Shown here: positions 11 to 10,036 of the stretch, one piece after another
How the letters are laid out: each line of letters begins with the position of its first letter
Position numbering within the stretch: position 1 is the stretch's first letter
NCBI GenBank assembly: GCA_036394755.1
Contig: DASWEL010000006.1
Coordinates: 4,475 to 68,474, forward strand
DNA length: 64,000 bases
Direction of reading: 5' to 3'
Origin: Gemmatimonadales bacterium
GTDB taxonomy: Bacteria > Gemmatimonadota > Gemmatimonadetes > Gemmatimonadales > GWC2-71-9
Position numbers and translations under genes: made by a program
Notes under the pieces: generated by a model
What the model was told of the DNA's origin: nothing
The model's database searches: none
Seen by the model: only the letters and a program-made list of their open reading frames with translations

Positions 11-1684
11 TTGCTCGTGGCAGCCGCGGTCGCCGGTTCGATCATCGCTGCCGACGTCTTGCTGCGCCGGCACCTCGAGCAGGAAATCGCGACGGAGCTG
101 GAGCGAGAGGCGCGGCTGGTGGCGGCGTTCGCGCCGGTCGACTCGACCAAGTGGCCGGAGTTTGCGGCGCTGGCGGGCGCGCGCCTCGGTCGTCGCGTCA
201 CGCTCATCGACCCTAACGGCCACGTCCGGGGCGACACCGAGTTCGATCGCGCCTCGCTCGCTCAACTCCAGAATCACCGCGACCGTCCTGAGGTACGCGC
301 CGCACTCGATTCTGCGCGCGGGGTCGGGATGAACGAGCGCCTCAGCGCCTCCACCAACGAACGCCAGATGTACGTAGCGATCCGGGGCGGGCCGCCCGGG
401 CTCGCCGTCGTCCGCGTCTCCGCCACACTCGCGATCGTGGACGCGCAGGTTCATGCCGTCCAACGCGCCGTCGCCGTAGCGGGATTGGTCATGCTGCTCG
501 CGGCCTGGCTCCTCGCCTGGGTGCTCGCGCGCGCCCTGGCCTGGCCGCTGCTCCGCATCGCCGACGCGGCCACGGATATCGCCGCCGGCCGCCCGGCGGA
601 ATTCCCCGACGTGCGCGTCCCCGAGCTCGCCCACCAGGTCGACGCGCTTCGCGCGATGCATCACGAGCTCGAGCGACGCTTCGAAGACCTGCGCCGCCAG
701 CGCGAGGAATCCCGTACGCTGCTCGAGGCGCTGTCGGACGGCGTCCTCGCCGCCGACAAGCGGGGCATCGTCGTCGAGACGAACGCGGCCGCCCGCCGGC
801 TGCTCGGCTACGGAGAAACGGAGCCGTTGCCTCCCCTCGGCGAGCTGTTCCATGACCGCGCCCATCGCGCGTTGATGCGCGAGGTCCTGACCGGCGCGGT
901 GGTCGAGGGACGCGAGCTGGATCTCGGCGACCGCACCGTCGTGTTCTCCGCCCGGCCGCTCGCGGAAGGCGGGACGCTGCTCGTGCTGAGTGATGTTACC
1001 GACGTGCGACGACTCGAAACGGTCCGGCGCGATTTCGTGGCGAACGTGTCGCACGAGCTGAAGACTCCGTTGACGGCCATCGCCGGATACGCCGAGACGC
1101 TCGCGGCTGAGGCGTCGGACGCACAGGCGACGGGGTTCGCGCAGACAATCGTGGAGAACGCGCGGCGCATGCAGCGCCTGGTCGATGACCTGCTCGACCT
1201 CTCGCGCATCGAATCCGGAAGCTGGGAGCCTGAACCGCGAAGCGTCGACGTGGAGATGGCCGCACGAGAAGCGTGGGGTCCCTTCGCCGAGCGCGCCGCG
1301 GGCCGCGACGTCGCGTTCGAAAGCGCAACCAACTCGTCGGCCATCAATGCAGACCCCGAAGCATTGCGGCAGATCTTCACCAACCTGTTCGACAACGCGC
1401 TGCGGCACACGCACCCGCGTGGTCGGATCCGCGTCGGCGCGCAGCGAGCGAGCGGTGCCACTGTCGTGCGAGTCAGCGACACCGGTTCCGGCATCCCGGC
1501 GGATCACCTGCCCCGCATCTTCGAGCGCTTCTACCGCGTAGACCCCGGGCGTTCCCGCCAGGAAGGCGGCACGGGGCTCGGTTTGGCGATAGTCAAACAC
1601 CTGGTCGAGGCACATGGCGGCCGCGTCGAGGCCGAGAGCGAGCTCGGTCGCGGCACCACAATCCTTTTGTACTTCCCGACTTAG
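11..1684 (+). CDS. phoR: Phosphate-regulon sensor histidine kinase (PhoR-like): TM/HAMP, PAS, HisKA and HATPase domains. The frame is open to the left window edge, so the true start may lie upstream.
   Basis: H-box 'FVANVSHELKTPLTAI'. ATPase N/G boxes 'NLFDNALRHT', 'DTGSGIP' and 'GGTGLGLAIVKHLV'. N-terminal hydrophobic segments are present. It lies next to pstSCAB-phoU. Confidence 0.8.
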   Translation: MLVAAAVAGSIIAADVLLRRHLEQEIATELEREARLVAAFAPVDSTKWPEFAALAGARLGRRVTLIDPNGHVRGDTEFDRASLAQLQNHRDRPEVRAALDSARGVGMNERLSASTNERQMYVAIRGGPPGLAVVRVSATLAIVDAQVHAVQRAVAVAGLVMLLAAWLLAWVLARALAWPLLRIADAATDIAAGRPAEFPDVRVPELAHQVDALRAMHHELERRFEDLRRQREESRTLLEALSDGVLAADKRGIVVETNAAARRLLGYGETEPLPPLGELFHDRAHRALMREVLTGAVVEGRELDLGDRTVVFSARPLAEGGTLLVLSDVTDVRRLETVRRDFVANVSHELKTPLTAIAGYAETLAAEASDAQATGFAQTIVENARRMQRLVDDLLDLSRIESGSWEPEPRSVDVEMAAREAWGPFAERAAGRDVAFESATNSSAINADPEALRQIFTNLFDNALRHTHPRGRIRVGAQRASGATVVRVSDTGSGIPADHLPRIFERFYRVDPGRSRQEGGTGLGLAIVKHLVEAHGGRVEAESELGRGTTILLYFPT

Positions 1685-1722
1685 CACTCGTTACACAGCC
1701 GTAACGCGTACGTCACCGACTG

Positions 1723-2901
1723 TTGACCGCCCACGCGCAACGTTGGCTCGTGCGAATTGCGCTCGTAACAGACACGTATACGCCGCAGGTCAACGGCGTC
1801 ACGACAGTGGTCGTCCGGATCGCGAATGTGCTGCGCGACTTCGGCCACGAGGTCGTCGTCGTCGCGCCACGATATCCCGGCCACTCGCCTGCGGACCCGG
1901 GTGAGCTGCGGATTCCGTCGGCGTCGTTTCCGCCGTATCCGGCCATCCGGTTGTCGCTCCCGCGGTTCGGGGCTGTGTCGCGGTTCCTCGACTCGTTTGC
2001 GCCTGATGTCGTGCACGTCGCGACGGAGGGACCGCTCGGGTTGACGGGTCGGCGCTACGCCGTGCGGCGCGCCATTCCCCTGGTGACTTCATATCACACG
2101 AACTTCCCACAGTACGCGGGCCACTACGGTGCCGGCGTCGTTGAGCCGCTCGTCTGGAAATGGCTGCGCTGGTTCCATCGGCCCGCCGTGTTGACGCAGA
2201 CGCCCGGCGAGGCAGTCGCGAACGAGCTGGAACGCCGCGGTATCGGGCGCCCGATCGTTTGGGGTCGCGGCGTGGACACCCTGCACTTCAACCCCTCACG
2301 ACGCAGCGCCGGCTGGCGGCGCTGGCTCGCCGGCGGTGACGATACTGCCATCGTCCTGCATGTCGGCCGGCTGGCTCCCGAGAAAAACATCGATGTGCTC
2401 GCCGAGGCGTGGATCGCCGCCCGCGAGCACGTGGGCCAGCGTGCGACGTTCGTGCTGGCCGGGGACGGGCCGGAAGCGCGCCGCCTGCGCGGGCTGCTGC
2501 CCTGGGTCCGCGAACTCGGCTTTCTCGACCGTGACAAGCTCGCGGATGTATACGCGAGCGCCGACATCTGCGTGCTCCCGTCGAAGACGGAGACGTGTGG
2601 TCTGGTGGCTCTCGAGGCGATGGCCTCGGGGCTCGCCGTCATTGCGGCGGATGCCGGGGGCTTTCGTGAAAGCATCACGCACGGGCAAACGGGACGCCTC
2701 GTTGCGCCTGAGGATGCGACCGGGTTTGCCGCCGAAATTCTGTCCCTGGCCATCAGCCCACCGCGTCGCGCCGCGCTTGGGGCGGCAGCGCGTGCCGCGG
2801 CTGTCGCGCGCGACGTCGCTCCCGAGAACCTCGCGCTGCTGCAGCAGTACATGAAAGCCGCCGGACTCTCCAACGCCGGAGCCGCCTCATGCGCTGCGTA
2901 G
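1723..2901 (+). CDS. GT4-family (GT-B fold) glycosyltransferase. An alternative GTG start at 1750 would give 'MRIALVTD...'.
   Basis: N-terminus 'RIALVTDTYTPQVNGVTTVV' and C-terminal 'PSKTETCGLVALEAMASGLAVIA' (E-x7-E type GT4 signature). Its 3' end overlaps the next gene's start. Confidence 0.8.
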   Translation: MTAHAQRWLVRIALVTDTYTPQVNGVTTVVVRIANVLRDFGHEVVVVAPRYPGHSPADPGELRIPSASFPPYPAIRLSLPRFGAVSRFLDSFAPDVVHVATEGPLGLTGRRYAVRRAIPLVTSYHTNFPQYAGHYGAGVVEPLVWKWLRWFHRPAVLTQTPGEAVANELERRGIGRPIVWGRGVDTLHFNPSRRSAGWRRWLAGGDDTAIVLHVGRLAPEKNIDVLAEAWIAAREHVGQRATFVLAGDGPEARRLRGLLPWVRELGFLDRDKLADVYASADICVLPSKTETCGLVALEAMASGLAVIAADAGGFRESITHGQTGRLVAPEDATGFAAEILSLAISPPRRAALGAAARAAAVARDVAPENLALLQQYMKAAGLSNAGAASCAA

Positions 2902-3716
2902 TGCTCGTCCTCGCCGATGGCCTGCGCCCCGACGCCATCACGCCGACGGATATGCCGTCGCTCGACGCGCTGGCTCGGACCTACACGATGGCACTACGGG
3001 CGCGGACGGTGCGCCCCAGTCGCACGGTCGCGGCGCTCGCCTCGCTTGCGACCGGCGTCGCGCCGGAGACGCACGGCTTGATCGAGCCGGGCCTGGGGTT
3101 CCTCGCCCACCTGCCGGCTCTGCGCCCGTTGGCTCGCGAGCTGTCGCGCGGTAGCGTGCCCAGCCAGGTCGTCGCGAGCGAGCTGCTCCCGGCCGAGCGG
3201 GCGGTGCTGTGGGCGCTCACGAAAGCGGCGGGGCTCGGGAAGTACCGCTCCGCCGGTCTACGCGCACGCGACGTCGCGCGGGCGGCCCAGGCCGCCGCGC
3301 TCGCCCCGTCAGCTGGTTTGGTCTTCGTGTATCTGAACGATTGCGACCAGGCGGGACACGCGCACGGCTGGATGTCGCCGCAATATCGCGCCGCGGCGGT
3401 CGAGGTGGACGCCGCGATCGGTGTGCTTGCGGATCTCACCGAACACTCGCTGGTCATCGTGATGGCCGATCACGGCGGTGGAGGCGTGAGCACATACGAC
3501 CACGCCGAGCCGCACCCCATCAACGATCACATCCCCCTCATTCTCGCCGGTCCCGACGTTACGCGCCGCCACCAGCTCACGCGCCAGGTGTCGTTGCTCG
3601 ATGTTCCCCCGACGCTGCTGTGGTGGTTCGGCCTGGACGTTCCGGCGGCCTACGAGGGTCGGGTGCTCACGCAGGCGTTTACGCGGACGTCCGACCCCGT
3701 CGAGGCGGGCGTCTGA
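2889..3716 (+). CDS. Alkaline-phosphatase-superfamily enzyme, nucleotide pyrophosphatase/phosphodiesterase (NPP)-like.
   Basis: 'VLVLADGLRPD' (metal-binding Asp), 'PSRTVAALASLATG' (nucleophile region resembling the NPP 'PT.T.PNH..TG' motif), 'DQAGHAHG' and 'VMADHGGGG'. Overlaps the upstream GT (2889 vs 2901) and shares a TGATG junction with the downstream PAP2 gene. Confidence 0.65.
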   Translation: MRCVVLVLADGLRPDAITPTDMPSLDALARTYTMALRARTVRPSRTVAALASLATGVAPETHGLIEPGLGFLAHLPALRPLARELSRGSVPSQVVASELLPAERAVLWALTKAAGLGKYRSAGLRARDVARAAQAAALAPSAGLVFVYLNDCDQAGHAHGWMSPQYRAAAVEVDAAIGVLADLTEHSLVIVMADHGGGGVSTYDHAEPHPINDHIPLILAGPDVTRRHQLTRQVSLLDVPPTLLWWFGLDVPAAYEGRVLTQAFTRTSDPVEAGV

Positions 3717-4144
3717 TGCGCTGGCTCACGCACCTCGGCGGCGCGCGGGTGACGATCGGCATCGGCCTGTTGCTCGTCGCGGCGGGCGAGCGGCTGCTCG
3801 GTGTCGCCGCGCTGTTTGCGCTGACGACGTCGCACCTGGCGGTACAGGTGCTGAAGCGTGCCGTCGCGCGGCCACGGCCGTGCGACGCGAACGGGCGCTT
3901 GCTGGCGCTGATCGACCTGCCGGATCCGTACTCCTTCCCTTCCGGTCACGCCGCGGCGGCATCGGCAGTGAGCGGCACCGTGGCGCTCGCTCACCCCTTG
4001 CTCGCTCCAATTCTCCTGCCGATTGCGGCGCTGATCGCGATCTCGCGCGTTTCGTTGCGCGTCCATCACGTCGGCGATGTCATCGGGGGCGTGGTGCTTG
4101 GGCTGGCCGGCGCGATCGGCGCCGCAGCCCTCATTCTGCACTGA
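3716..4144 (+). CDS. PAP2-family (type 2 phosphatidic acid / lipid phosphate) phosphatase, integral membrane.
   Basis: The three PAP2 motifs are present: 'KRAVARPRP' (KxxxxxxRP), 'PSGH' and 'SRVSLRVHHVGD' (SRxxxxxHxxxD). There are several hydrophobic helices. The ATG at 3716 overlaps the TGA of the preceding gene. Only the last 142 codons of track ORF 3209..4144 are used. Confidence 0.8.
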   Translation: MRWLTHLGGARVTIGIGLLLVAAGERLLGVAALFALTTSHLAVQVLKRAVARPRPCDANGRLLALIDLPDPYSFPSGHAAAASAVSGTVALAHPLLAPILLPIAALIAISRVSLRVHHVGDVIGGVVLGLAGAIGAAALILH

Positions 4145-4342
4145 CAATCGTCATGTGCCCGGCGGCGGATTGCACGGCCGACTGTCCGGGTGCCCAGGTA
4201 GCGGGGGCCAGCACGGCTCCGCTATCTGCGCATCTGCCCGTTACGCAATTGTGACATCGCCGACTCACGCCAGTGATGCCGAGCGACCAGGTTTTCAGCC
4301 GTGAACGCAGTCAACAATCACCCCAAGTCTTGAGGAGTACTC

Positions 4343-5395
4343 GTGCACGCAAGACTGTCGTATCCGCTCGTGGCGCTGGCGATGTTGGGCGGGTTCGCTG
4401 TCCCCGCCGCTGCTCAGGCGCCCGCCGCGCAGGCGCCGCAGGTCACCGTCGGCGGTGTTGCCTATCTGCAGTACCTCTACCAACTCAAGGACACCACCAA
4501 CCACAACAACAACTTCGACGTGACCCGGGCGTACATCAACGTCCTCGGACGGTTCTCGGGTGGCGTCAGCACACGCATCACGGCGGACATCCAGCGCGTC
4601 GGTGCCGGCGACAACTCACTGCGCTATCGGCTCAAGTACGCGTTCGTCGCGTATACGCCCCAGGGCAGCTCACTCACCTACAAGCTCGGTCAGATCCACA
4701 CGCCCTTCATCGATTGGGAAGAGGCACTGTGGGATTACCGCATGCAAGGGCAGATGGCGATGGAGCGTGGCGCCTACCTCTCATCGTCGGACTTCGGTCT
4801 GGGCGTGGACGGCAACTGGAACGCCGACAAGGTCAATATGCAGGTCGGGATCTACAACGGAGAGAGCTATAGCGGCGGGACCGGCGACAAGCGCAAGGAC
4901 TTCATGGGTCGTGTGTCGGTACGCGTCAAGCCGACCGATGACGCCAGCCGCGTCGGTGGCCTTCGTGTCACCGCGTATGGGCAGTACGGTAAGCCGACCA
5001 GCGGCGGCCAGCGGAGCCGGCTGCTCGGCATGGTGTCGTACCGGACGAAGCAGATCACGTTGGCGGGCGAATACGCCGTGACGAAGGACAGCACCACGGG
5101 ACCAGTGCCAGCCCCCGTCGCCCATTCGTCCGGCTCAGTCGCCAGCTTCTTCGGTGTGTACCGCTTCACCAACTCGAAGGCGGCGGTACTCGCCCGCGTG
5201 GATCTGACGGATCCGAACACGAATGTCGGTAACAACCGCCTAACGCGGTTCATTGGCGGCGCCTCGTATCAGCTTTCGCCAAACCTCCGCCTGCTCGCAG
5301 ACCTGGATATGCTCTCGTACCAGGGCGGCGCGCCGACGCCGGCAGCCGAGGCGACACGCTCGCAAGCATTTTTCCAAGCGCAATTCACGTTCTAA
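4343..5395 (+). CDS. Outer-membrane beta-barrel porin, possibly phosphate-selective by context.
   Basis: GTG start preceded by GAGGAG at 4332-4337. Signal peptide 'LVALAMLGGFAVPAAAQA'. Alternating beta-strand-like pattern and an aromatic C-terminus '...FQAQFTF'. Located directly upstream of pstS. Confidence 0.55.
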   Translation: MHARLSYPLVALAMLGGFAVPAAAQAPAAQAPQVTVGGVAYLQYLYQLKDTTNHNNNFDVTRAYINVLGRFSGGVSTRITADIQRVGAGDNSLRYRLKYAFVAYTPQGSSLTYKLGQIHTPFIDWEEALWDYRMQGQMAMERGAYLSSSDFGLGVDGNWNADKVNMQVGIYNGESYSGGTGDKRKDFMGRVSVRVKPTDDASRVGGLRVTAYGQYGKPTSGGQRSRLLGMVSYRTKQITLAGEYAVTKDSTTGPVPAPVAHSSGSVASFFGVYRFTNSKAAVLARVDLTDPNTNVGNNRLTRFIGGASYQLSPNLRLLADLDMLSYQGGAPTPAAEATRSQAFFQAQFTF

Positions 5396-5418
5396 CGCAG
5401 ACTCGGAGAGAACTACTC

Positions 5419-6471
5419 ATGAAGCTCACACGATTCCTCGCCACCGCCGCGCTGCTCGGCACCGCCCTCCCGGCGGCCGCGCAGGTCACGCTGAACGGCG
5501 CCGGGGCGACGTTCCCGAACATCATCTATTCGAACTGGATGCTGACGTACAATCAGGGGCATCCCGATGTGAAGCTGAACTACCAATCGATCGGGTCGGG
5601 CGGCGGCATCCGTCAGTTCTCCGACGGCACCGTCGATTTCGGCGCTACCGACGCCCCGATGACCGACTCGGCCATCGCCGCCATTAAGGGTGACGTCCTG
5701 CATATCCCCACGGTGCTCGGCGCCGTCGTTGCCGCGTACACGCTGCCCGATGTCTCCCAGCCGATTCGTATCACCCCGGACGTCCTGGCCGACATCTTTC
5801 TCGGTAAAGTCACGAAGTGGAATGACGCACGGTTGGCGAGCATCAACCCCGGCGTCACCCTGCCGAACCAGGACATCATCGTCGTGCACCGCTCGGACGG
5901 TTCCGGCACGTCGTTCGTCTGGACCGACTACCTCTCCAAGGTCAGCCCGGAGTGGGCGCAGAAAGTCGGCAAGGGTCCGTCGGTAAACTGGCCGGTGGGG
6001 CTCGGCGGCCGGGGCAATGAAGGCGTCGCGGCGACCGTCCGGCAGACGCCCGGCGCAATTGGCTACATCGAGCTCGGGTATGCCTTGATCAACAAGATGC
6101 CGTTCGCGGTGCTGAGGAATCAGGCGGGCAACTGGATTACCGCCTCGTTGGAATCGGTGACCGCCGCCGCCGCCGGTGGGATGAAGGACATGGGTCCGAA
6201 TACCGACTTCCGGGTGTCCATCACCAACTCGCCGGGTGCACAGGCGTATCCCGGCGCGAGCTTCACCTGGCTCTTGGTGCACAAGACGTACAGCGATACC
6301 GCCAAGGCCCGGGCGCTGGTGCAGTTCGTCTGGTGGGCGGAAACCGACGGCCAGGCGAAGGCGCCGGAGCTCGGCTATTCGCCGCTGCCTCAGGAGCTGC
6401 GCCCTTGGATCCAAGCCCGCTTGAAGAGCGTCACGGCTGGCGGGCGGTCGGTCTGGAAAACGGCAGAGTAA
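5419..6471 (+). CDS. pstS: Phosphate ABC transporter substrate-binding protein PstS.
   Basis: Signal peptide followed by 'LNGAGATFPNIIYSNWM', 'YQSIGSGGGI', 'FGATDAPM' and 'SDGSGTSF', which are typical PstS motifs. RBS GGAGAG at 5405-5410. Confidence 0.95.
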   Translation: MKLTRFLATAALLGTALPAAAQVTLNGAGATFPNIIYSNWMLTYNQGHPDVKLNYQSIGSGGGIRQFSDGTVDFGATDAPMTDSAIAAIKGDVLHIPTVLGAVVAAYTLPDVSQPIRITPDVLADIFLGKVTKWNDARLASINPGVTLPNQDIIVVHRSDGSGTSFVWTDYLSKVSPEWAQKVGKGPSVNWPVGLGGRGNEGVAATVRQTPGAIGYIELGYALINKMPFAVLRNQAGNWITASLESVTAAAAGGMKDMGPNTDFRVSITNSPGAQAYPGASFTWLLVHKTYSDTAKARALVQFVWWAETDGQAKAPELGYSPLPQELRPWIQARLKSVTAGGRSVWKTAE

Positions 6472-6533: not shown

Positions 6534-6605
6534 ACTTTCGTAGTGACAATTCCGTTACATCGTTGTGACGGTGACTCCATGAGGCGCCGGTAGGTTTCCG
6601 GCGCG

Positions 6606-7598: not shown

Positions 7599-8443
7599 CC
7601 GCGAGCGCGTTTCGTCGCCACCTCGTGAGCTGCGTGATGACGGTGCTGGTCGTCATCCTGTCGTTCACCGCCGTGCTCGCGCTGGTGCTCATCCTCGGCA
7701 ACCTCATCGCGAAGGGCGCGTCGTCGATCGACTGGGCGTTCTTCACCAAGAGCCCAGTACCGGCAGGACAGTCGGGTGGCGGCGTCGCCAATGCGATCGC
7801 GGGGAGCGGGATCATCGTCGGTGTCGCCGCATTGATCGGCGTCCCGATCGGCGTCGGCGCGGGTTTGTACCTGGCCGAATACGGCTCGGGACGGCTCGGC
7901 TTTTTCGTGCGATTCATCGCCGACGTCCTGAACGGCACCCCATCGATCGTCGTCGGCATCGTAGCGTGGACCTTCATCGTGAAGCCGACCAGCCATTTCT
8001 CCGCCTTAGCGGGCAGCGTCGCCCTCGCGATCCTGATGATCCCGATGCTGGCGCGGACGACGGAAGAGATGGTACGACTGGTGCCGAACTCGCTCCGCGA
8101 GGCGGCGCTGGCGCTCGGGTACCCGCGCTGGCGGACATCGTTGAAGGTCGTGGCGCGCACGGCGATGACCGGCATCGTGACCGGCTGCCTCGTGGGAATC
8201 GCCCGGATCGCCGGCGAGACCGCGCCCCTCCTCTTCACGGCGCTGGGCAACCTGAACTTTACGCTGAACGTCAATCAACCGATGCAGACGTTGTCGCTCC
8301 AGATCTACGTGTATGCGACAGGCCCGTTCGACGAGTGGCACCGGCTGGCGTGGGCATCCGCGCTCGTGCTGATGGGACTCGTGCTCGTGATTTCTCTGAC
8401 CGCCCGCTGGGTCACGAGGGCCAGATATGGTCGCATCCGCTAA
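7595..8443 (+). CDS. pstA: Phosphate ABC transporter permease PstA.
   Basis: Multi-TM protein with the EAA loop '[14 protein letters not shown]'. It shares a 4-nt overlap with pstC. Confidence 0.9.
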
Positions 8444-9203
8444 CACCCGGCTGCGGCTCGAGACGGCGCACCTCACCGCACTGTTCGGGCAACATCGCGC
8501 GGTGCGGGACGTCTCGCTCCTGTTCCCCGCGAACACCGTTACCGCGATCATCGGCCCCTCAGGGTGCGGCAAAAGCACCCTGCTCCGCTGCCTGAACCGC
8601 ATGCACGAGTTGACGCCCGGCGCGAGTGTCGATGGCGTAGTCCTGCTCGATGACGTGAACATATACGCCGGCGACGTGAACGCGGTCGAGCTGCGCCGCC
8701 GGATCGGCATGGTGTTCCAGCGTCCCACGCCGTTCCCGACGATGTCGATCTACGACAACGTCGCCGCGGGACTCAAGGTCAACGGACGCAAGCCGAGACC
8801 GGAAGTGGACGACGCCGTGTCGCGGGCGCTACAGCAAGCGGCGCTGTGGGAAGAAGTGAAGGATCGGCTGCACACCAGCGCGCTGGATCTGTCGGGCGGG
8901 CAGCAGCAGCGACTCTGCATCGCACGGGCGGTCGCTCCCCAGCCGGAAATTCTGCTGCTCGACGAGCCGACCGCCTCCCTCGATCCCGCCGGGACGCAGC
9001 GCATAGAGGAGCTGTGCCACGCGCTGAAGCGCCTCTACACGATCGTCATCGTGACCCACAACATGCAGCAGGCGGCGCGCGTTTCCGACTACACCGCATT
9101 CATGTACCTGGGCAGCCTCATCGAGGTAGGACGCACGGACGAGATCTTCACCAAGCCGAAGGTCGAGCAGACTGAAGCGTACATCACCGGACGGTTCGGA
9201 TGA
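8427..9203 (+). CDS. pstB: Phosphate ABC transporter ATP-binding protein PstB (copy 1).
   Basis: Walker A 'GPSGCGKST', signature 'LSGGQQQRL', Walker B 'ILLLDEP' and the PstB-typical C-terminus '[10 protein letters not shown]'. Confidence 0.95.
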
Positions 9204-10036
9204 AAGCGACTGCGTCGGATCGGCGGATCGACGGATCGCCGGATCGGCGGTTGGACAATCCGCCCATCCGCCCATCCGCCCATCCGCCCGTCCTCGAGTC
9301 CAAGTCGTATAGTTTTTGGTACGGCCCCACTCAGGCGCTGCACGAGGTCAACTGCGCGATTGCGGCCAACGCCATCACTGCGCTGATTGGGCCGTCGGGC
9401 TGCGGCAAGACGACATTCCTGCGCTCCATCAACCGCCTGCACGATCTCACGCCGGGTGCGCGGCACGAGGGCGATATCCTGCTGGACGGCACCTCGATCT
9501 TCGCGCCGGGGACCGACGTCGTCGCGTTGCGACGCCGCGTCGGCATGGTCTTCCAGCGACCCAATCCGTTTCCCAAGGCGGTCTACGACAACGTCGCCTA
9601 CGGGCCGCGATTGAACGCGCTCGCCCCGGCACGCGAGCTCCCCGACCGGGTCGAGCGCGCGCTGCGGCAAGCGGCATTGTGGGATGAGGTATCCGACCGG
9701 CTGCGCGAGCCCGGGACATCGCTCTCGGGGGGACAGCAGCAGCGGCTGTGCATCGCGCGGGCGCTGGCGAACGAGCCGGAGATGCTGTTGATGGACGAGC
9801 CCTGCTCGGCACTCGATCCGATTGCGACCCAGCGCATCGAGGAGCTGCTGGTCGAACTGAAAAAGACATACACTATCGTTATCGTGACGCACAACATGCA
9901 GCAGGCGGCACGGGTTTCGGATTACACTGGGTTCTTCTACGTGGGCCGTCTGGTGGAGTTCGGCGTGACCCAGCAGGTCTTTACTCGGCCCGCCGATGAA
10001 CGCACGGAAGCTTATATCACAGGAAGGTTCGGATGA
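9200..10036 (+). CDS. pstB: Phosphate ABC transporter ATP-binding protein PstB (copy 2), with a low-complexity N-terminal extension.
   Basis: Walker A 'GPSGCGKTT', 'LSGGQQQRL', 'MLLMDEP' and C-terminus '[10 protein letters not shown]'. The ATG overlaps the pstB1 stop (ATGA). No in-frame ATG/GTG/TTG lies between the repeat region and the conserved core. Confidence 0.9.
9217..9289. repeat. Two adjacent tandem octamer arrays, (GGATCGNC)x4 and (ATCCGCCC)x4, that form an imperfect inverted repeat.
   Basis: Read directly: ggatcggc ggatcgac ggatcgcc ggatcggc at 9217-9248, and atccgccc x4 at 9258-9289. The reverse complement of the second unit (GGATGGGC in register) differs from the first unit at one position. 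Confidence 0.8.

Follow-up and report, generated by a model that had tools for sequence, protein, structure and literature searches.

A GT4-NPP-PAP2 gene cassette in a phosphate locus of Gemmatimonadales and its possible role in membrane lipid remodelling

Introduction

Gemmatimonadota are among the commonest phyla in soil, where phosphorus is often limiting, and to our knowledge their phosphorus economy is essentially unknown. Here we consider a stretch of 64,000 nucleotides from a Gemmatimonadales metagenome-assembled genome (the window), in which genes for a GT4 glycosyltransferase, an NPP-like enzyme of the alkaline phosphatase superfamily and a PAP2 phosphatase are packed between phoBR and a porin-pstSCABB-phoU gene set. 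The question raised by this locus is what such a trio does among phosphate genes. An earlier note, made from the sequence of the window alone, took it for a candidate phosphate-starvation module of lipid remodelling. We propose that the three genes are an accessory cassette of the PhoBR regulon that would shift the membrane from phospholipids to phosphorus-free glycolipids, a predicted function that we consider about as probable as not.

A co-inherited cassette with a GT4-PAP2 core

The window is part of contig C6 of an assembly of 3.78 Mb in 357 contigs (89.6% complete, 68% GC DNA). The cassette consists of the following genes:

1750..2901, + strand: GT4 (GT-B) glycosyltransferase, 383 amino acids, probably lipid-directed (reading frame open from TTG 1723)
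2889..3716, + strand: minimal cytoplasmic alkaline-phosphatase-superfamily enzyme of the NPP type, 275 amino acids
3716..4144, + strand: short PAP2 lipid phosphate phosphatase, 142 amino acids, with 4-5 transmembrane segments (PF01569, 72 bits)

GT4 and the NPP-like gene overlap by 13 nt at 2889-2901, and the NPP-like gene joins PAP2 through TGATG at 3714-3718; both junctions, the three open reading frames and their families had been read correctly before, as the sequence and the Pfam matches confirm. The GT4 gene had been thought to begin 39 nt past phoR. Its start is most likely GTG 1750 (MRIALVTDTYTPQVNGV...; Met-Arg-Ile), because orthologues begin at the corresponding codon and because TTG 1723 belongs to unit four of a promoter repeat that is itself conserved; the real gap is thus 65 nt.

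Orthologues of the NPP-like gene (E below ~1e-32) number about 85 among 401 Gemmatimonadota genomes, all in the window's own order. In a search of 1.84 billion representatives, the orthologue group amounts to 35 clusters (E ≤ 1e-30). The close relatives, listed as Gemmatimonadales or Gemmatimonadetes bacterium, are mostly of soil origin. A GT4 orthologue adjoins the NPP-like gene in 45 of the 50 loci inspected, with PAP2 adjacent in all but two of these 45. The five loci lacking GT4 hold the most distant NPP matches (33-36% identity), four of which count towards the ~85 (G350, G336 C3) or fall slightly short of the threshold. As a unit, the cassette occurs in about 80 of the 401 genomes and has persisted through inversions and reshuffling. 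This co-inheritance, in dozens of genomes at 38-95% identity, bears out the idea of a functional unit, as does a fusion of two of the genes.

The fusion, found on three metagenome contigs, is a GT4-NPP protein of 702 amino acids, joined by a low-complexity linker of ~55 residues and followed directly by PAP2. A fusion of this kind is classic evidence for joint action of the two proteins, and for their location on one side of the membrane. At locus L172 (6001-8648), the 702-residue fusion precedes a PAP2 of 180 amino acids, and two GTnAC units spaced 11 bp apart lie ~35 nt upstream.

Three arrangements illustrate the rearrangements. In family f1 the genes follow phoBR in the order GT4, NPP, PAP2, all in one direction. 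In genus g6, PAP2 follows phoR in the same direction, GT4 is inverted, and NPP reads forward again, ahead of porin-pstS. In family f2, away from phoBR, GT4 and NPP diverge and NPP is followed by PAP2 and, in some loci, by a second GT4. The flanks vary but once more consist of phosphate genes, either ppk2-ppx-ppk1 or porin O/P and pstS preceded by a TonB receptor; at L139 the cassette lies between ppx and ppk1. The second GT4 of the f2 cassettes (L037, L039, L040, L044, L047, L048, L139) is divergent and groups with the Bacillota and f7 clade in a tree; its presence hints at a diglycosyl product.

GT4 and PAP2 are also found as a pair that lacks NPP: in a congeneric genome, in family f7, in two Gemmatimonas-like genomes, both complete, and in genus g3, where the pair still lies within the pho locus. 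A single genus shows three states of the phoR-porin junction: empty (four genomes), GT4-PAP2 and GT4-NPP-PAP2. The GT4-PAP2 state of that genus is a secondary in-frame deletion, in which GT4 ends in the last 13 codons of NPP (AFTRTAQPVEAGV and stop) and TGATG-PAP2 is kept; the deletion site is seen at L054 8060-8180 (G004) and in L092. At L090 7170-7990 (assembly AG30) the NPP orthologue is frameshifted mid-gene, either by decay or by an assembly error.

Outside the phylum, the nearest GT4 homologues (34-43% identity over the full length) are found in Bacillota, Planctomycetota and a Treponema. About 20 of some 50 of them directly adjoin a gene for a PAP2 homologue (31-41% identical to the PAP2 of the window), and this adjacency appears in all three major clades of a tree of 157 GT4 sequences. 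At a few of the Bacillota loci, pst, pho or ppk genes are also close by. In Paenibacillus, PAP2 stands between GT4 and a GT28 of the monoglycosyldiacylglycerol (MGDG) synthase type, which uses diacylglycerol. One such locus (L138 4082-8750, Paenibacillus sp.), with GT28 and PAP2 on one strand and GT4 and a GT2 diverging from them on the other, resembles a compact glycolipid cluster around PAP2. The ancestral core is the GT4-PAP2 pair, and the NPP-like gene is a lineage-specific, optional add-on. The three-enzyme module first envisaged thus stands as a unit, and falls as an equal partnership.

A PhoB-box-like promoter

The spacer between phoR and GT4 and two other intergenic regions of the locus contain phased repeats:

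1690..1729, + strand: PhoB-box-like element of four 11-bp-phased units, GTTACAC / GTAACGC / GTCACCG / TTGACCG
1738..1743, + strand: -10-like hexamer CAACGT, 6 nt 5' of the GTG start
4240..4279, + strand: second PhoB-box-like repeat, GTTACGC-N4-GTGACAT-N4-GACTCAC-N4-GTGATGC, upstream of porin-pstS; second-best genome-wide match of the GT4-promoter matrix
6543..6571, + strand: third PhoB-box-like repeat, GTGACAA-N4-GTTACAT-N4-GTGACGG, upstream of pstC

Within the 65-nt spacer the array reads GTTACAC-AGCC-GTAACGC-GTAC-GTCACCG-ACTG-TTGACCG, with an 11-bp period. In Pho promoters of E. coli, a repeat array stands in for the -35 element and stops ~10 bp short of the -10, which is the geometry of PhoB as an activator. 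The pattern expected of a PhoB/PhoP box, 11-bp direct repeats abutting a -10, is present here, and we predict from this layout that PhoB is the regulator.

The four-unit array upstream of GT4 is kept in 31 distinct promoter sequences with diverged spacers (for instance, L001 6838-6861 and L002 6852-6873). Their consensus is GTTAC-N6-GTnAC-N6-GTCrC-N6-TTGAC, then 9-10 nt, an xATxxT hexamer, 6-7 nt and GTG; the hexamer varies (CATCGT, GATCCT, CAACGT), and the xATxxT layout holds in nearly all 31. Similar arrays persist in family f2, where phoBR lies elsewhere, in the divergent GT4/NPP promoter region.

Only three sites in the 3.78-Mb assembly have three perfect GTNAC units spaced 11 bp apart, and two of these sites are in this locus (before GT4 and before pstC), and other spacings of the triple GTNAC gave no site in the assembly save two at 15 bp. 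The array upstream of the porin is less perfect than those before GT4 and pstC. Genome-wide, a 40-nt matrix trained on the GT4 promoters returned only the GT4 and porin promoters above threshold, the matrix being too promoter-specific and the assembly fragmented. Other intergenic dimers, at C24, C58 and C356, precede a response regulator, a BTAD/TPR regulator and a HAD-like protein and are uninformative. At G000:C356:14629-14856, two GTGAC units spaced 11 bp apart lie 212 nt 5' of the gene for the HAD-like hydrolase, which may be a further Pho-regulated gene.

No Shine-Dalgarno sequence precedes the GTG start of GT4, and this, together with the short distance from the hexamer to the start, suggests a leaderless, GUG-initiated mRNA. 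No terminator-like site was found on the coding (+) strand between phoR and the cassette, nor between the cassette and the porin, and read-through from phoBR is therefore also possible. Given the conserved PhoB-box-like promoter and the siting of the cassette in pho, pst and ppk loci in several arrangements, the earlier proposal of a role in the phosphate-starvation response appears well founded, and we regard membership of the Pho regulon as very likely.

A predicted route from phospholipids to glycolipids

In the scheme that we favour, PhoB would bind the four phased repeats at 1690-1729 under low phosphate and activate a probably leaderless GT4-NPP-PAP2 transcript. PAP2 would convert phosphatidic acid (or a related lipid phosphomonoester) to diacylglycerol and inorganic phosphate, and the cytoplasmic GT4 would combine diacylglycerol with a nucleotide sugar to form a glycolipid on the inner side of the membrane. 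The NPP-like add-on would mobilise existing lipids by cutting a phosphodiester or pyrophosphate bond in phosphatidylethanolamine, phosphatidylglycerol, cardiolipin or CDP-diacylglycerol. In this scenario, a cut of the phospholipase D type would give phosphatidic acid for PAP2, one of the phospholipase C type would give diacylglycerol directly, and cleavage of CDP-diacylglycerol would again yield phosphatidic acid.

The scheme accounts for GT4-PAP2 as an ancient core, for an NPP that is dispensable yet coupled or fused to GT4, and for the place of the cassette in the Pho regulon. Action on membrane lipids seems likely, because the GpgS and Mgs models cover the acceptor domain of GT4, PAP2 is nearest to PgpB, and the GT4-PAP2 pair recurs in Bacillota with GT28. 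For glycosyl-diacylglycerol as the product, we see the case as roughly balanced.

The GT4 has both domains of its family (Glyco_transf_4, 1.4e-31; Glycos_transf_1, 3.4e-33) and the EX7E motif (E281, E289), as the CAZy definition of retaining GT4/GT-B enzymes demands, as well as the conserved motifs DTYxPQVNGV, SYHTDF, W..LRrFH and ETxGLVxLEA. A conserved Trp/Arg-rich segment, LVWKWLRWFH, may form an interfacial helix. The best NCBIfam model is GpgS, the GlcNAc-phosphatidylglycerol synthase of P. aeruginosa (NF053787; 130 bits over residues 11-360, against a cut-off of 480), followed by Mgs, the MGlcDAG synthase. Among NCBIfam models, only these two lipid models align with the N-terminal acceptor domain. 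A grouping with exopolysaccharide (EPS) or cell-wall transferases, which the earlier note had named as a finding against its proposal, was not seen: models of EPS, cell-wall and glycogen enzymes match only the C-terminal, nucleotide-sugar domain. GpgS also ranks first for relatives from f2, f7, Bacillus, Paenibacillus and Orenia (130-173 bits, the window's own GT4 included), and the enzyme is the sole GT4 of the genome with a full-length match to a lipid-type model. Since all scores fall far below the equivalog cut-offs, the GT4 represents a sister clade, for which the acceptor is a matter of prediction.

With GpgS as the best-scoring family for the GT4 and all tested relatives, and B. subtilis PgpB as the best solved relative of PAP2, the product could instead be a glycosylated phospholipid. 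PAP2 would then be a phosphatidylglycerophosphate phosphatase like PgpB, and GT4 would glycosylate the head group of phosphatidylglycerol, in the reaction known from GpgS (PMC12713373), altering membrane charge under stress. We consider this unlikely. The scores are well short of the cut-off; the neighbours of the GT4 gene are NPP and PAP2 rather than gpgD and gpgF, and no GpgD deacetylase or GpgF flippase gene was a neighbour among the loci inspected. Moreover, a dedicated Pho promoter is hard to square with a phospholipid product, which would spare no phosphorus, and this reading leaves the NPP-like enzyme and the GT4-NPP fusion without a role.

The NPP-like protein matches PF01663 at 94 bits (cut-off 23). 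All 15 orthologues compared keep the nucleophile Thr46 and the metal ligands D10, D153/H157, D194/H195 and H209, which align with those of Xanthomonas NPP, the nearest solved sequence relative. The protein is ~120 residues shorter than a normal NPP. It lacks a signal peptide, since strand 1, which holds the metal-binding Asp10, already begins at residue 4. Among its more distant relatives (30-40% identity) are secreted proteins that contain Big_1 domains and an Anaerolineales protein of 273 residues. The NPP family includes lipid phosphodiesterases of both regiochemistries (NPP2, NPP6, NPP7), and other enzymes of the superfamily (LtaS, EptA) release diacylglycerol from phospholipids. Any one specific substrate for the cassette enzyme is at best a tentative choice.

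A variant of the same pathway would have this enzyme directed at nucleotides, either hydrolysing CDP-diacylglycerol to CMP and phosphatidic acid, which would feed PAP2, or clearing the UDP made by GT4. Pyrophosphate hydrolysis of nucleotides is the canonical NPP reaction, and the relationship to Xanthomonas NPP is in keeping with it. CDP-diacylglycerol would pass through phosphatidic acid and diacylglycerol to glycolipid in a strictly linear three-enzyme route, and the fusion with GT4 would also suit UDP removal. However, the canonical residues of the nucleotide pocket are absent: TFPNH reads TVAAL, and HGIVHN reads HGLIEP, its Asn aligning with Pro67. In Xanthomonas NPP the Phe of TFPNH is the base-stacking residue and the Asn of HGIVHN contacts the phosphoryl group. 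The lack of both therefore argues against a standard nucleotide pocket, and we give this variant a small chance.

PAP2 retains the catalytic motifs KxxxxxxRP, PSGH and SRxxxxxHxxxD. Its best solved relative, B. subtilis PgpB/YodM (5jki), is aligned over PgpB residues 67-203, and the first helices are therefore missing from PAP2. Its top NCBIfam matches are the undecaprenyl-diphosphatases SepP and PRK11837, as would be expected if the cassette switched envelope polymers in the manner of the change from teichoic to teichuronic acid. PAP2 would then recycle undecaprenyl diphosphate, and GT4, acting on a polyprenyl-linked or lipopolysaccharide acceptor, would make a surface glycan free of phosphate. 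For such a switch there is a precedent in B. subtilis, the tua operon under PhoP control. We find it rather improbable here, as the PAP2 matches are far below the cut-off (45 versus 250 bits), a lone GT4 with no flippase, polymerase or priming transferase cannot make a polymer, the EPS and cell-wall GT4 models fit only the generic C-terminal domain, and the partner gene in Paenibacillus is a diacylglycerol-type GT28. That the three genes are chance neighbours or unrelated housekeeping genes is very hard to credit in the face of their co-inheritance through rearrangements in ~80 genomes, the gene fusion, the shared conserved promoter and their presence or absence as a block.

Several observations weigh against the glycolipid route that we favour. 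GpgS, the closest characterised GT4, acts on phosphatidylglycerol rather than diacylglycerol, and the match to it lies so far below the cut-off that diacylglycerol can only be called a candidate acceptor. The AlphaFold model of the NPP-like protein is only moderately confident (pLDDT 67, pTM 0.73), and the fold search with it returned a generic alkaline phosphatase core (sulfatases, Xac NPP, YejM, LtaP; TM-scores ~0.6-0.7) and no lipid-specific relative. The best NCBIfam matches of PAP2, weak as they are, point to undecaprenyl-diphosphatases, and the active sites of PAP2 enzymes are usually periplasmic, whereas GT4 and NPP are cytoplasmic, a mismatch in topology. As for regulation, the distant f7 GT4-PAP2 pairs have no such box in the upstream regions examined, and matches to the box consensus did not extend to a large number of further genes in the 90%-complete assembly.

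Comparison with known systems

Bacterial PlcP-Agt operons have Pho boxes, and MGDG and glucuronosyl-diacylglycerol (GADG) are made under phosphorus stress (PMC4796936, PMC8231724). The Agt/GTcp clade is composed of proteins of ~334 amino acids, with Asp replacing the signature Glu and <25% identity to other GT4s (PMC8231724). Like the PlcP-Agt systems of SAR11, Phaeobacter, Agrobacterium, Pseudomonas and Burkholderia, the cassette is a small operon with a Pho box (here a predicted one), pairs a potential diacylglycerol-yielding enzyme with a cytoplasmic GT4, and has a patchy, accessory distribution. Unlike PlcP, a metallophosphoesterase of the LpxH superfamily, its partner enzymes belong to PF01663 and PF01569. 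The cassette GT4, in contrast to the Agt/GTcp clade, has 383 amino acids and keeps the glutamates of ETxGLVxLEA, and its nearest outside homologues are in Bacillota and Planctomycetota, not in Alphaproteobacteria.

The GT4 is thus set apart by the published clade features and by the taxa of its nearest homologues, and is not an Agt orthologue. Of the kinship with Agt or MGlc-DAG synthases that the earlier note had asked about, a likeness to Mgs was found (below cut-off) and orthology with Agt was not. The cassette is an analogue of PlcP-Agt, the nearest known system in predicted function, and not a member of that group, its proteins differing from PlcP and from Agt alike. The genome also contains two paralogues of the LpxH/PlcP superfamily elsewhere, at contig ends and with no adjoining GT4; the absence of PlcP, or the non-orthologous replacement of it that had been proposed, therefore cannot be claimed. 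An OlsB-type domain was not found in the 89.6%-complete assembly.

The GpgSDF operon of P. aeruginosa and HexSDF of C. difficile resemble the cassette in being three-gene, lipid-modifying operons, and GpgS is the closest characterised GT4 family. Their partner proteins are a deacetylase and a flippase, not phosphatases, and we know of no link between these operons and the Pho regulon. In the phosphorus-starvation route of plants and cyanobacteria, NPC4/5, or phospholipase D together with PAH/LPP (PAP2), supplies diacylglycerol to DGD1 and SQD2, which are of the GT4 type. The logic is shared, including LPPs of the PAP2 family, but the organisms and families are unrelated and the plant genes do not form an operon.

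At the level of single proteins, the NPP-like enzyme shares the Pfam family, the Thr nucleophile and the bimetal site with Xanthomonas NPP and with NPP2, NPP6 and NPP7. It differs from them in being shorter, in having no signal peptide, in lacking the Phe and Asn of TFPNH and the Asn of HGIxxN, and in its tie or fusion to a glycosyltransferase. The PgpB proteins of B. subtilis (YodM) and E. coli, which are known to dephosphorylate phosphatidylglycerophosphate, phosphatidic acid and undecaprenyl diphosphate, have in common with the cassette PAP2 the three motifs and the membrane core; the latter is cut to 142 amino acids, without the first one or two helices.

In the literature we found neither a PAP2-GT4 or NPP-type Pho lipid module in bacteria nor lipid renovation in Gemmatimonadota, and the route to sugar lipids proposed here would be a new one. 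From the perspective of evolution, one possible view, which we hold tentatively, is that PAP2 and GT4 form an old, cross-phylum phosphatidate-to-glycolipid module, so far overlooked, that in Gemmatimonadales came under the direct control of PhoB and was upgraded with a new phospholipid-cleaving class, a minimal, cytoplasmic protein derived from NPP and sometimes fused to GT4. This would be a third independent solution to lipid renovation, beside PlcP and PlcH/NPC.

If the glycolipid route is correct, surveys that count plcP and agt would miss lipid renovation in Gemmatimonadota, and perhaps in the Bacillota that carry GT4-PAP2, and the NPP-like protein would represent a new type of enzyme, a small cytoplasmic lipid phosphodiesterase of the alkaline phosphatase superfamily. 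The three junction states in one genus would offer a natural experiment for dissecting the contribution of each gene. From the conserved promoter come an initial PhoB-box model for the order and a GUG transcript that may be leaderless.

Neighbouring genes

The genes that bound the cassette are as follows:

11..1684, + strand: phoR sensor kinase, with HisKA, HATPase and PAS domains (PhoR/PnpS models, 293-310 bits)
G000:C6:3700-4452: phoB, just upstream of the window
4343..6471, + strand: porin and pstS, the downstream Pho genes (porin alone 4343-5395)

The local order is ppk1 and ppx (minus strand), an ArsR-like gene, phoB, phoR, GT4, NPP-like, PAP2, porin, pstS, a hairpin, pstC, pstA, pstB, pstB, phoU and arsC. 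The porin and the pst-phoU genes downstream had been noted before, and the pst set consists of pstS, pstC, pstA, two pstB and phoU. Upstream of the window are phoB, the ArsR-like gene and the divergent ppx-ppk1 pair. A gene caller based on third-position GC content miscalls strands in this 68% GC DNA (for instance, it prefers the antisense of the PAP2 gene) and serves only as a rough guide.

The gene for the ArsR-family regulator (G000:C6:3339-3710) immediately precedes phoB, with which it overlaps. At the opposite end, beyond the pst genes, arsC is coupled to phoU, as the earlier note had observed. Every related pho locus examined has the tandem pstB genes (8427-10036), and the positions of the copies show ~60% identity; the duplication is therefore old in the lineage.

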